Virus record (IMG/VR): IMGVR_UViG_3300027901_000002
Location: 35,015 to 99,014 of that record
Reading direction: 5' to 3' (one strand)
Source: a virus
Length of the DNA stretch: 64,000 bases
Under the pieces are notes generated by a model that ran no database searches, had not been told where the DNA came from, and saw only the letters and a list, made by a program, of their open reading frames with translations. This document shows, piece after piece, positions 3,215-26,382 of the stretch; the first letter of the stretch is position 1, and each line of letters opens with the position of its first letter. The position numbers and the translations under genes are program-made.

Positions 3215-3224
3215 AAATTTAAGT

Positions 3225-3352
3225 AAGGAAGGTCGGATTTGCACCGACGCTTTCTTAGGTGATGGTCTCAGTAAAGAAAGTCTAAAATAGATAAGCGGAC
3301 GTCCTTACCATCATTACCGTCAGTAGGCTTTACGCTATCTATTTTCTTCCTT
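3225..3352 (-). ncRNA. tRNA-like cloverleaf RNA (non-canonical)
   Basis: 7-bp closing stem AAGGAAG/CUUCCUU; T-arm GUCGG-UGCAAAU-CCGAC abutting it; long arm AAAAUAGAUAGCG/CGCUUAUCUAUUUU; arm CUUUCUU/AAGAAAG. Confidence 0.6.
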
Positions 3353-3441
3353 TATTTTATTTTATTTTTAAATTTTCTTAACATAAAAATATTTTAAACA
3401 TTTATAAATGTGTATTCCCAGACGAAGCATTTTTATTATTT

Positions 3442-3741
3442 TCAGATTTTTAAAAATAATAAAATAATCAAAATTGAAGTCGCTACGACGTTTCCAATCG
3501 AGGTATATAAAATAAACCTAAGAGTAGAGTTAATTTTTTGCGTTACGTTTAGTGTGTCTTGTAAAGTATCTAAAAGTTCGAGTATATCTTCTTCCATACT
3601 TAAGAAGAGTCCTAGCTCGTACAAATCTTTTTTCGTGTAAGACGAATTACATTCTTTACAATAAAATCTTTCGTAAACCCAATTCATTTCAATGTTTTTA
3701 TGTATCGGACAATTCATTAGTTGTTCGCCATTATTAAGCAA
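3442..3741 (-). CDS. Zn-ribbon protein with C-terminal membrane anchor
   Basis: CPIH...CKEC and a hydrophobic C-terminus. Confidence 0.55.
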   Translation of the reverse strand: MLNNGEQLMNCPIHKNIEMNWVYERFYCKECNSSYTKKDLYELGLFLSMEEDILELLDTLQDTLNVTQKINSTLRFILYTSIGNVVATSILIILLFLKI

Positions 3742-3970
3742 AGCGTTATAATTACGATAGATACGCCTAAAAACAAGGAAATAACAAAAAGGGCGTATTT
3801 TTTAAGTTGGTTCAATTTTTTCGACCTTAAAAGTAGTTTCGTTATCGATTCTTTCTGGATCTTGATTCCAAATCCTTTTAGTTGCTTTTCTAATCGCTTC
3901 GCACTCGTCTTCCGCTTCTACTTCTACTCTGTAAATATCTATCAAAAATTCTTTTACTTCTACTTTATAT

Positions 3971-4414
3971 TTAACCACTCATATCCACTCTTATTTCCAT
4001 TATTATACCATCTTCGATTTTTGCGTAAACTGGATACAATCCATCTCCAAATCCAGAATCAAAAGATACAGCTAAACCATCGTGTCCAAGGTGGAAAGGT
4101 ATTTGTTTGTAACTTTTTCCTTTTTTGTGAGAGACGTAATTGTAAGAAAATTCAAATTCTGGTTCGTAATGTATTCGAATCCATTGTTTAAGATCGTGTA
4201 TTAAGTTATTAGGTGTTAATCCTAGTTCTTTTATTTCTTGTTCGTAGCTATCAAAATCTTTACCATATTTGTATATTTTACCGCTTTCTTTGTCTCGATA
4301 TTCTCTTATATCTTCGTATTCGCCTTTTTTCCACCATTTAAGATAAGAAGGATCGCATATTATTAACTGTCCAGAATCTACTCCAACTACGCCAATTTTT
4401 TTCCATTCTGTCAT
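3971..4414 (-). CDS. DUF4241-like protein
   Basis: VGVDSGQLIICDP and SGFGDGLYPVYA motifs. Confidence 0.65.
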   Translation of the reverse strand: MTEWKKIGVVGVDSGQLIICDPSYLKWWKKGEYEDIREYRDKESGKIYKYGKDFDSYEQEIKELGLTPNNLIHDLKQWIRIHYEPEFEFSYNYVSHKKGKSYKQIPFHLGHDGLAVSFDSGFGDGLYPVYAKIEDGIIMEIRVDMSG

Positions 4415-4552
4415 TTCGAGTCGGTAGAGTTCGTCAACTCAGTGTTTCACATGCATGTTACGCACACCCCTGATAGCTCCTTGCTGTTGATTGAGGTAAG
4501 TGCAATGAGCACGTCTCTCGCTCCTTAGGAGTCCGTCTTAGGAGGCACCGAT
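4415..4552 (-). ncRNA. BHB-bounded intron/excised RNA element D (138 nt)
   Basis: 5' A-CGAG-AAA-UCGGUG (4559-4546) pairs with 3' UACCGA-CUCG-AAA-U (4426-4413); GC-rich with internal hairpins. Confidence 0.75.
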
Positions 4553-4965
4553 TTCTCGTCTAACTCTTTTAACCATCTATTTATAAAACCATTTATTTCG
4601 TGAGTTGGAACGTTATATCCGCTTGGACTACCTTCAGACCATTTGTTTAAAATTCTTTGCGTTTCTAACAAAACTAGTTCTGCCATAGTTTTTCTTTCTT
4701 TCAGAAGGTGTTGTTTTCTACTTAATTCCGCTTTTTCGTACATTCCATCTCTATAAAGCATTCTTGCAAACTTCATTTTTTGACGCAATTCAAAAATACC
4801 TAAATAATGACGATTAAACATTTCCACCAAAAACCTAGAATTTCGTCCTCTTTTTTCGAGCATTTTAATTGCTTTGTAAGTTCGCAAAAAATTACCAATA
4901 CTTAGTTTAATTGGATTAGTACTTATATTACTACAAATTGATTCTATTTTTTCTCTTTTTGACAT
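4525..4965 (-). CDS. Hypothetical protein; predicted to end ...ELDEK* after splicing
   Basis: 146-aa ORF whose last codons run into BHB element D. Confidence 0.65.
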   Translation of the reverse strand: MSKREKIESICSNISTNPIKLSIGNFLRTYKAIKMLEKRGRNSRFLVEMFNRHYLGIFELRQKMKFARMLYRDGMYEKAELSRKQHLLKERKTMAELVLLETQRILNKWSEGSPSGYNVPTHEINGFINRWLKELDEKSVPPKTDS

Positions 4966-5180
4966 TATTTTTCGTCTAATTTAGATATTGGACAATTTTC
5001 CCAATCTTGTGAATTGTAACAACCGCTAGTACATCCTCCTCCTTTGCCACATATTTCTCCACCACCTCTTAAATCTACAAGATATGGACATGTTGTTTTA
5101 CAAATCCACGTAACATGGTTCCAAGGGCAGTTGTTTATGTATTCACAACCTATACAATAATCTACGCTATAACTTGGCAT
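4965..5180 (-). CDS. Small Cys-rich protein
   Basis: Multiple Cys residues; ATG at 5180 directly follows the BHB 3' site; TAATG overlap with the next gene. Confidence 0.6.
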   Translation of the reverse strand: MPSYSVDYCIGCEYINNCPWNHVTWICKTTCPYLVDLRGGGEICGKGGGCTSGCYNSQDWENCPISKLDEK

Positions 5181-5182
5181 AT

Positions 5183-5327
5183 ATCGAGTCGGCCTCAATT
5201 GAGATTTTTGCTCTGGCTTGGGAAATTTGCATGCTTTCCAAAATAGTTAAAAGCTATAAAGTTTATAATCCAATGGGATCTCTAGTCCCTGTCTACCCCC
5301 CAAGAGGCCGTCGCAGAGCTTACCGAT
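5183..5327 (-). ncRNA. BHB-bounded intron/excised RNA element C (145 nt)
   Basis: 5' A-CGAG-AAA-UCGGU (5334-5322) pairs with 3' GCCGA-CUCG-AUA-U (5193-5181); internal GCUCUG/CAGAGC stem and hairpins. Confidence 0.7.
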
Positions 5328-5413
5328 TTCTCGTTCGGCGGGATGTAGTGACAATACGCACCGTCCCTATGTGACCTTCCTTATTACTCTTACGAGCTAT
5401 GCCCTATACCGAT
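5328..5413 (-). ncRNA. Structured middle segment B (86 nt) between two BHB elements, itself closable by a BHB-like motif
   Basis: CUCG-AAA-UCGGU (5419-5408) can pair with GCCGA-A-CGAG-AAA (5339-5327); hairpins CUC-GUAA-GAG and GGGA...UCCC. Confidence 0.5.
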
Positions 5414-5545
5414 TTCGAGTCAGCTGGAGCTCCCAAAGAACTTTCGGTTAGAGACGATATACGCTTCAACCTCCCCTGCATCCACTCGTGTAGAGTCTTT
5501 CTCTCTACTCAGGATCTACGGCTGTCCCGCTTCGTTCACGCTGAT
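5414..5545 (-). ncRNA. BHB-bounded intron/excised RNA element A (132 nt)
   Basis: 5' A-CGAG-AAA-UCAGC (5552-5540) pairs with 3' GCUGA-CUCG-AAA-U (5424-5412); inner helix shows compensatory changes relative to the other copies; hairpin GUAGAG/CUCUAC. Confidence 0.75.
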
Positions 5546-5863
5546 TTCTCGTATTCTTTCTTGTCTTCTTTTCTTAATTTCTTCTAACTCACTTTTCGGA
5601 ACTGGTTTTAACTTTACGCCTTCCGCAAAAACCAATTTTAATTCTTTTACCAATTCTTGCTTTACGCCGCTAATTTTAGGAGCAAATTTTGGAGGTTTCG
5701 GAGGAGGGTTCCAAGTAGGACGAGAAATAAATCTTTTCGTCCCAACGAACCTAAGAAAACTACTTCTATTTCTCCCTTCCAATTCTGCGTTTTCGTCTAT
5801 TTTCTTTAGCTCCTCTTCATTAACCCAAAAACTAATTTTTATTGCTCTTTTTCGATGCGACAT
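5516..5863 (-). CDS. Ribbon-helix-helix DNA-binding protein with a Pro-rich linker and C-terminal helix
   Basis: ISFWVNEEELKKIDENAELEGRNRSSFLR is a CopG/MobC-type RHH pattern. Confidence 0.7.
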   Translation of the reverse strand: MSHRKRAIKISFWVNEEELKKIDENAELEGRNRSSFLRFVGTKRFISRPTWNPPPKPPKFAPKISGVKQELVKELKLVFAEGVKLKPVPKSELEEIKKRRQERIREISVNEAGQP

Positions 5864-5989
5864 AAGAAACCGATGTGTTAACCTTTAAGAATTGGTAAAT
5901 AAATTGCTGTTAATAATATAAACGCAAGTAAATGTACGACAACCCAAAATATAGCAATTACGATTGCTATTTTTTCGTCTTTATCCATT

Positions 5990-6229
5990 TTAACCCAAAT
6001 TTTTCAAAAAAATTACCAAACAATCTATCGAACAAAAATCAAGCCTACATTCGTAGTAGGTTCCTGTTGTTTTATTGTTTTCGTCTGAAATATTAATATC
6101 AAACGTGCAGTTATCCTTACTAGAAATAGTAATCCAACCAACACATTTTCTAACTTCGTCTAACGTTCCTTCTCTTCCACAACTATCGCATTTATATTTT
6201 GTTATTTTCAAACTTTTCGAACTTCTCAA
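5990..6229 (-). CDS. Small Zn-finger protein
   Basis: CDSC...FCSIDC (TRASH/MYM-like pattern). Confidence 0.55.
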   Translation of the reverse strand: MRSSKSLKITKYKCDSCGREGTLDEVRKCVGWITISSKDNCTFDINISDENNKTTGTYYECRLDFCSIDCLVIFLKNLG

Positions 6230-25470: not shown

Positions 25471-26382
25471 TTAAATCTTATTTAACAATAAATTGTTGTC
25501 TTCTAATAACTTTAAAAATTCTTTTGGACGCGTTCTATTTAAATGTTCTTTTCCATTTCCAAAATTTCGCGCCAAAAATCTTAAATAATCCATTATAGTT
25601 CCTCGAGTAAGATAACGCCACTGTTCTTCGTCTCCAGAAAAATCCTTTATGTAAAGTTCGTGGTTAAATTTAACAGCAACAATATGATAGTCTCTATACC
25701 AACTTCTTTGTTTAAAGAAGTAAATTGTTCCTCTGATTCTAAGCCACATTGTAAATGATGTATACCACGTATCGGCTATCTGGCGAAATCCCTCGTCGAT
25801 TCGAGTGTGTATTTCTAACGCTTTTCTTCTTCTTTCCATTTCTTTATCGTACGCTTCTAATTGAGACATTTTATCTCTTAAGTAAGGGGAAGCAGATATT
25901 TCTTCTGGAGTAAAACCAAATTTTTTGTAAAATCTCCAACCGTCGTAAGTCGACGGGCTCGGAATGAAATAATCTATTAATTTTTTGTTTGCAATATATT
26001 TTTCGTCTATTTGTTTTATCAAAAATTCTTTGTATTTTGGATTTGCCAACGACAATTCTTTTAACAAAGGCCACGACAAACTACTATGCAGCAAACGACA
26101 ATCGCAATCGTGCTCTATCCACGCTTGTAAATTAGAACAATGTCCCCAAAATTCGTCTTCTGGAGGAATTTTAAATTGTGTGGCTTGATATTCTGTTTGA
26201 TATGTACTCAAATCGTCTATCGACTCTATTTTATTTATTTTGTCGAAATTGCTTGGAGTGAGAACTACCAATAAATATTTACACATGCTTATGTACTTAT
26301 CGTTTATGTAAATATTTGTTTTTTTGCCTTCTAATTTAACTTCCATTTCTTCAGTAATTTTATAACATAATGATTCTGTCAT
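25471..26382 (-). CDS. Protein with Lokiarchaeia-type N-terminal domain
   Basis: KLEGKKTNIYIND...CKYLL...ESIDD...IPPEDEFWGHCSNLQAWIE...RLLHSSLSWPLLKEL resembles a domain I recall from Lokiarchaeia proteins, often LRR-fused. Confidence 0.7.
   Translation of the reverse strand: MTESLCYKITEEMEVKLEGKKTNIYINDKYISMCKYLLVVLTPSNFDKINKIESIDDLSTYQTEYQATQFKIPPEDEFWGHCSNLQAWIEHDCDCRLLHSSLSWPLLKELSLANPKYKEFLIKQIDEKYIANKKLIDYFIPSPSTYDGWRFYKKFGFTPEEISASPYLRDKMSQLEAYDKEMERRRKALEIHTRIDEGFRQIADTWYTSFTMWLRIRGTIYFFKQRSWYRDYHIVAVKFNHELYIKDFSGDEEQWRYLTRGTIMDYLRFLARNFGNGKEHLNRTRPKEFLKLLEDNNLLLNKI

Follow-up and report, generated by a model that had tools for sequence, protein, structure and literature searches.

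The 64-kb window analysed here forms the final 64 kb of a virus record that is complete at 99,014 bp and has direct terminal repeats (IMG/VR record IMGVR_UViG_3300027901_000002). Its subject is element D, a GC-rich intervening sequence of 138 nucleotides (nt) that separates two small genes and may be an intron of the bulge-helix-bulge (BHB) type. The virus genome is AT-rich (GC 0.335) and encodes a terminase, a portal and a baseplate J protein, and is therefore that of a tailed virus. Around element D small genes are tightly packed on the minus strand, on which all features described below lie unless another strand is given. The operon appears to start with an RHH/NikA-like gene (5863..5516), followed by a GC-rich stretch that holds elements A to C (5545..5183), a Cys-rich gene of 71 amino acids ending ...ISKLDEK* (5180..4965) and an orphan open reading frame (ORF), annotated with 146 amino acids and ending ELDEKSVPPKTDS* (4965..4525). 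Element D comes next (4415..4552; GC 0.51 against 0.335 for the genome), then a DUF4241-family gene of 147 amino acids as downstream cistron (3971..4414; Pfam PF14025, E 6.4e-8), an ORF of 58 amino acids (3978..3802) and a T-rich terminator with T-runs near 3790-3765. The Cys-rich gene and the orphan ORF are joined by a TAATG stop/start overlap (4963..4967). On reading the sequence, neither a T-run nor a TATA-like box was seen inside 4552..4415, and the two genes flanking element D are therefore probably co-transcribed. PHROGs and Pfam added no function for the neighbouring small genes.

The left end of element D reads ...AAA GAG TTA GAC GAG AAA TCG GTG CCT CCT AAG ACG GAC TCC TAA and the right end ...CTACCGACTCGAA|ATGACAGAATGG. 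Without excision, the orphan ORF ends in ...K E L D E K S V P P K T D S *, of which the read-through tail SVPPKTDS and its TAA (4525..4551) lie inside the element. The first-pass annotation had proposed that excision restores an ATGA stop/start overlap, and direct reading of the minus strand bears this out: with cuts after 4553 and before 4414, loss of the 138 nt gives GAC GAG AA|A TGA CAG. The exon part of the orphan ORF (4553..4965, from the ATG at 4965..4963 to GAG AA at 4553) would then encode 138 amino acids ending ELDEK*, and its TGA (4413..4411) would overlap the ATG of the DUF4241 gene (4414..4412). A script check of the spliced sequence returned the ATGA where the two sides meet; 143 codons are open upstream of it and 147 downstream. 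The ligated junction would read ...GTTAGACGAGAA|ATGACAGAATGG and the predicted circle junction of the excised element CTACCGACTCGAA|ATCGGTGCCTCC; the core of the latter, GACTCGAAATCGGT, is also present colinearly at the A/B boundary near 5421-5408. It is equally correct that the 3' cut exactly precedes the A of ATG 4414, the third bulge A being the start-codon A. The cut position used agrees with the rule given for BHB introns, after the second bulge nucleotide and before the third (PMC2738675).

The gene boundary thus obtained resembles others of this virus. As the annotation had also noted, the neighbouring Cys-rich gene ends LDEK* with a TAATG overlap (4967..4963) and ATGA coupling is used elsewhere: between ORFs of at least 50 amino acids in the whole 99-kb genome there are 24 ATGA and 16 TAATG/TGATG junctions, the ATGA overlap being the commonest coupling. 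The spliced context is AT- and purine-rich, as at other coupled junctions, while the unspliced upstream sequence is C-rich. Six of the eight codons of the read-through tail have G or C at the third position (GC3 6/8), against 0.22 for the orphan ORF. By this native-like context and the deviating tail, the junction shows the 138 nt to act like a piece inserted at a gene boundary of native appearance. The Cys-rich gene and the orphan ORF, which are adjacent and unrelated, share the LDEK* end in nearly identical DNA, TTAGACGAAAAAT at 4963-4980 (minus strand, at the TAATG overlap) and TTAGACGAGAAAT at 4553-4566 (minus strand, at the D junction). This shared DNA may represent a target site, either unoccupied or decayed, or a cassette boundary common to both.

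The junction had further been presented as independent support for an intron. Its arithmetic and native look hold; it is no independent proof of splicing at the RNA level. A 5-nt direct repeat, GAAAT, flanks element D (4555..4551 and 4417..4413). It is intrinsic to a BHB with identical bulges, and owing to it six cut registers yield an identical product. Any precise insertion or deletion of DNA therefore predicts the same ATGA junction, and the junction leaves the cut register untested. In addition, an upstream frame ending in TGA would arise by chance at a rough estimate of ~0.1-0.15 (~1 in 8), presuming a 3' cut before ATGA, where only the frame (1 in 3) and the fourth base must fit. Since the search for comparative material described below was also fruitless, the junction is weaker evidence than first claimed: excision would give the ATGA expected of a sensible mature RNA, and as a sign of one it is weak.

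The boundaries of element D read GUUA-GA-CGAG-AAA-UCGGUG ... UACCGA-CUCG-AAA-UGAC, and the unconstrained minimum free energy (MFE) structure from ViennaRNA already displays a BHB, the geometry at which the archaeal tRNA-splicing endonuclease cuts, with an ensemble probability of 0.95-0.97. The central helix H comprises exactly 4 bp, all Watson-Crick, between CGAG (4555..4558) and CUCG (4417..4420), with a pair probability of 0.95-0.97. Two 3-nt AAA bulges stand on opposite strands, each 3' of its H strand (4552..4554 and 4414..4416; unpaired probability 0.99-1.0), and are the predicted cleavage sites, at 4553|4552 and 4415|4414. On the intron side, where at least two Watson-Crick pairs are expected, helix h' has six pairs, five Watson-Crick and one G-U, between UCGGUG (4546..4551; probability 0.95-0.97) and UACCGA (4421..4426). 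On the exon side, two unpaired nucleotides, GA (4560..4559), separate H from an outer helix h, in which the MFE structure pairs GUUA (4561..4564) with UGAC (4413..4410). The segment 4410..4414 thus carries the ATG (4414..4412), the TGA (4413..4411) and the 3' strand of helix h, and the UG of the DUF4241 start codon is paired in the predicted fold. No ORF was found inside the insert. Ribozymes, group I and II introns, tRNAs and known small RNAs were set aside after Rfam gave no match at gathering thresholds over the 64 kb; in 4300-5700 Rfam returned only noise at E > 5, and ARAGORN predicted no tRNA.

Two sister elements lie 0.6-1 kb upstream of element D. Element A (5414..5545, 132 nt) has the termini CGAG-AAA-UCAGC ... 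GCUGA-CUCG-AAA, and element C (5183..5327, 145 nt) has CGAG-AAA-UCGG ... CCGA-CUCG-AUA, its 3' cut falling 2 nt before ATG 5180. The sequence CGAGAAATC occurs only three times in the 99 kb, all copies being on one strand and within 1.1 kb; each marks the 5' edge of a GC-rich insert whose 3' edge has the matching GACTCGAWAT. The three elements are alike at their termini only (mean column identity 56% in an alignment that includes a chance match from an unrelated viral contig, L001), and helix h' covaries between them, with UCAGC/GCUGA in element A against UCGG/CCGA in elements C and D.

The CGAG/CUCG core is common to all sites, so that a 5' site of one element could also pair with a 3' site of another. 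The 5' site of element C (5327) pairs better with the 3' site of element D (4415-4426; UCGGUA/UACCGA, 6 Watson-Crick bp) than with its own 3' site (4 Watson-Crick bp and 1 G-U), and such pairing would skip the Cys-rich gene and the orphan ORF. Excising element A regenerates AUA-CGAG-AAA-UCGGU, which with the 3' site of element C makes a fuller motif with a 3-bp outer helix, AUA/UAU. The 5' exon of element A ends at a codon boundary (…RIRE|), and joining it to the 3' site of element D would make an in-frame fusion of the RHH and DUF4241 proteins, with an h' of just 2 bp.

How often such motifs arise by chance was estimated from shuffled sequences. A BHB of the quality of element D within +/-10 and +/-8 nt of its real boundaries was obtained in 92/20,000 shuffles (~0.5%), and a single strong BHB-like motif somewhere in ~8% of shuffled 240-nt regions. 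Generic BHB scans of whole genomes were swamped by chance matches. Considered jointly, the clustering of CGAGAAATC, the boundary shuffles, the covariation and the elements of a second virus make a chance origin of the BHB of element D unlikely. Public collections were also searched with the family pattern CGAGAAATCRG-N(110-140)-GACTCGAWAT, which gave one viral, 27 metagenome and 18 genome matches, the latter all bacterial. All of these are chance-like, with an h' mostly of 2-3 bp (at most 5) and no GC contrast. The viral match is on contig L001, in which (3881-4100, minus strand) a large ORF ends with an intein-like block, VYNLHVDEYHEYFVEGILVANS, and a degenerate second copy of the VYNLHVDEYHEYFVEGILVANS motif follows in the intergenic region.

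The second virus, G003, has a TerL 71% identical to that of the virus carrying element D. At 74953-75132 of its genome (contig L018 15553-15732, plus strand), between two small Cys-rich genes, stand two adjacent GC-rich intergenic elements of 87 and 72 nt. The first has the termini UUAAU-GCUG-AAA-U.CGGU ... ACCG.U-CAGC-AAA-AUUAA and the second AAU-GUGG-AAA-UUGGUGG ... CCACCAA-CCAU-AAG-AUU, both of them full motifs with outer and inner helices (hBHBh'). Their central helices, GCUG/CAGC and GUGG/CCAU, are unlike that of element D, and their outer helices have 5 and 3 bp. The first element begins after a TAA stop codon; the second ends 8 nt before the next ATG and is without a GAAAT repeat. Motifs of this kind appeared in 6/20,000 and 10/20,000 shuffles respectively, and both together in none. 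The pair lies just downstream of a block syntenic to window positions 12788-7072, the same neighbourhood as that of elements A, C and D. Since G003 builds full hBHBh' motifs there from different sequences, the BHB shape is conserved across both viruses and the sequence is not. In a further relative, G002 (contig L012 9900-10086), an AT-rich spacer of ~180 nt is all that separates the nucleotidyltransferase gene from the RFC-like gene. The whole block ~3250-6190 that holds elements A, C and D is thus missing there by synteny, and it is a hypervariable accessory island. No convincing BHB was found in other GC-rich noncoding islands of the relatives.

A BHB would be cut by enzymes of the host, and the virus genome contains indications of what this host is. 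One of its proteins is TFB-like, a zinc ribbon preceding a cyclin repeat, and structural matches agree on this. Another protein (25471-26382, minus strand) has an N-terminal domain, covering ~35-55% of its length, with 324 matches at E <= 0.001, its own record included, and best homologues at E 1e-20 to 1e-26. All organism-named matches are from Promethearchaeota, Promethearchaeia, Lokiarchaeota or Thorarchaeota, and the other named matches bear only a marine sediment metagenome label. The domain is expanded in Promethearchaeota (Asgard) proteins, in fusions with LRR, TPR or Ras domains, and is a good host marker. The TFB-like gene and this Asgard-restricted domain together point to a host that is probably archaeal and Asgard. 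DNA of the virus is present in marine sediment and seawater metagenomes.

The genes on both sides of element D were followed in other genomes. Homology searches with the DUF4241 protein gave 51 proteins at E <= 0.001, the query itself included. In ten homologues M-x(0-5)-WKKIGVVGVDSGQ forms the start at one shared column of the alignment, preceded in one of them by a longer N-terminal extension, and ATG 4414 is therefore, on this alignment, the true start of the gene. Among viral contigs, DUF4241-like genes that are short and stand alone abound, with 312 loci in IMG/VR (phrog_5209). No homologue of the orphan ORF was found among 5.8 billion clustered proteins or 1.84 billion cluster representatives, nor does the ORF lie upstream of DUF4241 at any of the best 80 of the 312 viral loci. 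Searches with each flanking protein gave no related locus, and both flanking genes are missing from five TerL-related viruses. The idea of a split gene, in which the orphan ORF would be the missing N-terminal half of the DUF4241 protein, was rejected because the two frames are different, homologues are as a rule short and stand alone, and no similarity was seen between the ORF and the N-terminal extension of P0023, the one long homologue compared.

We give about even odds to the reading that host enzymes excise element D from a polycistronic viral transcript as a BHB intron lying between cistrons. The reading starts from what is observed for the element, namely its sequence, motif, predicted fold, recurrence with covariation and host lineage; from these we infer cleavage, ligation and an effect on translation. 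The operon would be transcribed as a single RNA, in which CGAG (4558..4555) would pair with CUCG (4420..4417), leaving an AAA bulge after each strand and UCGGUG/UACCGA closing the intron side. The host splicing endonuclease would cut after the second A of each bulge, and a host RNA ligase of the RtcB type would join the exons and circularise the 138-nt piece. The orphan ORF would be shortened to ...ELDEK, its TGA then overlapping the ATG of the DUF4241 gene, and ribosomes ending the orphan ORF could reinitiate on the DUF4241 gene via the ATGA. Unspliced, the DUF4241 gene has no promoter, Shine-Dalgarno sequence or purine-rich leader of its own, the UG of its start codon is predicted to be paired, and 111 structured nucleotides separate the start from the stop codon upstream. 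This makes it mechanistically coherent that splicing could act as an on-switch for translation of the DUF4241 gene. The intron call is supported by the fold ensemble, the covariation, the second virus and the host assignment.

Several results weigh against this proposal. Under the strict definition, at least two Watson-Crick pairs close the 3' bulge on the exon side (PMC7714728), and element D has none beyond a single A4559-U4413 pair directly on that bulge, followed by G-G, A-A and U-C oppositions. The 4-bp helix GUUA/UGAC sits behind the 2-nt GA, placing the 3' site in a 2x3 internal loop, and after cleavage only this weak helix would keep the exons together for ligation. Folded with their flanks, elements A and C form their own BHB with p ~0.07 only. 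AT-rich DNA readily produces loose BHB-like motifs by chance (per genome ~2,750 in the actual sequence versus ~2,550 after shuffling), and the motif alone therefore proves little. A selected interior fold of the elements is unsupported, at z -0.95 to +0.5 against shuffles (-0.85 for element D against composition-matched shuffles). A DNA insertion accounts for the junction equally well, given the flanking GAAAT repeat. The ancestral insert-less junction was not found in relatives or variants, and its exact sequence is absent from IMG/VR. In the DNA contigs of four runs compared at element D, the site was covered in two, both other sediment/seawater runs, and the insert is unchanged in the contigs that span it. 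No RNA run containing the locus was found among the runs in which the DNA was found, and no EndA or RtcB gene was found in the virus genome. The Asgard host, finally, is inferred and not demonstrated.

Because the exon side of element D falls short of the strict definition, the predicted fold is that of a relaxed (HBh'-like) motif, which would need a broad-specificity enzyme of the (alpha-beta)2 or epsilon2 type. The EndA of Asgard archaea has been reported to be an (alpha-beta)2 enzyme with an L1 loop conferring broad specificity (PMC5829648), so that a relaxed motif such as that of element D is a plausible substrate in an Asgard host. The tRNA genes of Asgard archaea have also been reported to be unusually intron-rich or heavily interrupted (bioRxiv 10.64898/2026.10.13.758758).

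Among the other explanations, cleavage not followed by exon ligation is the foremost, though unlikely. The BHBs would serve as punctuation, the GC-rich piece would be released, perhaps circularised and perhaps a real product, and the ATGA would never form; the products would be an upstream mRNA ending in ...GAGAA>p and a leaderless DUF4241 message starting at its AUG. Several features of the elements would be natural in such a scheme. The 3' cuts of three of the five elements (D, C and the second of G003) lie 0, 2 and 8 nt before the next ATG, the G003 elements follow a stop codon, so that nothing is restored there, and the exon-exon helix of 4 bp behind a GA loop is weak for holding the exons. 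Archaeal rRNA intermediates and tRNA introns, moreover, normally arise by cutting at a BHB followed by circularisation (PMC7714728, PMC12558985). Nevertheless, the upstream ORF would be left without a stop codon, ending in GAG AA, and would stall ribosomes unless it is ligated; the 5'-OH end made by EndA is unusual for a leaderless mRNA; and the interiors show neither a selected fold nor a match to a known RNA family.

Somewhat less probable still is that elements D, A and C are DNA insertions that are never processed, each a small non-autonomous mobile element or recombination scar, with D in an ancestral ATGA junction of which GAAAT was duplicated. The orphan ORF would then simply read 8 codons into element D, and the DUF4241 protein would be translated inefficiently or by internal initiation. 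GAAAT indeed flanks elements D and A, and GAAAT/GATAT element C; the termini are partly inverted repeats with small hairpins near both ends; the insert is fixed, being identical in other metagenome contigs spanning the site; and it lies in a block (~3250-6190) that is accessory as a whole, the conserved genes on its flanks being adjacent in G002. However, the complementarity of the termini is offset by exactly 3 nt per strand around a 4-bp helix, which is the geometry of a BHB and not of the terminal inverted repeats of a transposon. The three copies resemble each other in their termini only, with conserved ends and free interiors, and the changes in their helices are compensatory. The same shape is kept in G003 with a different sequence and, in its second element, without the GAAAT repeat. 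Neither a Y1 transposase, nor a TnpB above the cut-off, nor a tyrosine integrase was found in the virus, and the pattern matches in public collections were all chance-like.

Named classes of mobile DNA were considered and rejected. A miniature inverted-repeat transposable element (MITE), or a palindrome-associated transposable element (PATE) of the IS200-IS605 type, would suit the GAAAT repeat; the termini pair in the BHB register only, the similarity is confined to the ends, and neither cognate enzymes nor copies elsewhere were found. For an integron attC site, the GTTRRRY/RYYYAAC core is absent from the ends of elements A, C and D on either strand and the genome has no tyrosine recombinase, and a CRISPR-like array is ruled out by geometry and missing enzymes.

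Very unlikely, lastly, is a cis-regulatory RNA, such as an intercistronic stabiliser, a protein-binding site or an attenuator hiding the AUG, that would be unrelated to the splicing endonuclease and resemble a BHB incidentally: GC-rich structured spacers are common in AT-rich genomes, the start-codon UG is paired in the predicted fold and ~8% of shuffled 240-nt regions hold a strong BHB-like motif, but chance falls to ~0.5% at the actual boundaries, the same geometry occurs five times in two viruses with covariation, and the RNA has no Rfam match and a fold no more stable than that of shuffles.

An intron as proposed for element D has a few known counterparts. The BHB intron of the cbf5 pre-mRNA in Crenarchaeota (Watanabe 2002; Yokobori 2009, PMC2738675) is likewise a tRNA-type BHB in an mRNA; its predicted cuts fall between the second and third bulge nucleotides, a hetero-oligomeric endonuclease accepts relaxed motifs, and splicing alters the translated product. 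The cbf5 intron, of ~14-40 nt, lies inside a conserved coding sequence and its splicing was shown by cDNA (PMC2738675), whereas element D, a candidate of 138 nt, lies at a viral cistron boundary and would restore a stop/start overlap instead of an ORF. A 46-nt BHB intron in the 5' untranslated region of HVO_1309 in Haloferax volcanii shortly precedes a coding region, as element D does; it is cut out in circular form, and efficient downstream expression apparently depends on this removal (Schwarz 2020, PMC7714728). That intron is cellular, monocistronic and of the strict hBHBh' form, and was proven by circular RNA sequencing and in vitro cleavage (PMC7714728), while element D is viral and intercistronic, with a relaxed exon side, and its excision would also trim the upstream protein. 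The BHB stems of archaeal rRNA operons, which give rise to circular 16S and 23S intermediates, excise structured GC-rich RNA from a polycistronic precursor and then circularise it, as would be the case for element D. In rRNA operons, however, the functional product is what is cut out, with spacers on either side; for element D the genes are on either side and the piece is without recognisable function. In the HAC1/XBP1 system, IRE1 and a tRNA ligase or RtcB remove a short intron without the spliceosome, changing the frame or terminus of the product and switching translation. The analogy is one of logic only: this system is eukaryotic and stress-regulated, and IRE1 acts on stem-loop sites and not on BHBs.

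In the literature searched, BHB introns in mRNA are very rare, being limited to cbf5, one Haloferax 5' untranslated region and untested inserts in an archaeal virus. The latter are 12-bp inserts attributed to Peng et al. (PMC2738675). No published intercistronic BHB intron, nor one in an Asgard virus, was found in the same literature, and the intercistronic position and the stop/start restoration are the new aspects of element D. If the element is spliced, both an accessory gene's translation and the C-terminal end of the neighbouring protein would hinge on the tRNA-splicing machinery of the host. It would then be a testable case of mRNA splicing by protein enzymes that controls translational coupling, as well as a natural viral source of circular RNA. 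If splicing does not occur, what is left is a family of intergenic inserts with conserved structure that has still to be explained.

More tentatively, and with considerable doubt, Asgard tailed viruses may use the tRNA-splicing endonuclease and ligase of their host as an expression device. GC-rich BHB spacers would punctuate early or accessory operons, and their removal would couple cistrons through ATGA or free leaderless messages. It would also yield circular RNAs and possibly alternative mRNAs, such as that from joining the 5' site of element C to the 3' site of element D, with an h' of 6 Watson-Crick bp. If true, this would be a splicing-dependent and possibly regulated switching of translation in a virus of the closest prokaryotic relatives of eukaryotes.

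Elsewhere in the window, a GC-richer stretch at 3224-3352 (minus strand) lies just upstream of the RFC-like gene. ARAGORN made no tRNA call there; the stretch has a GGAAGG/CCUUCC closing stem and, at its end, a T-arm-like hairpin, GUCGG-UGCAAAU-CCGAC.

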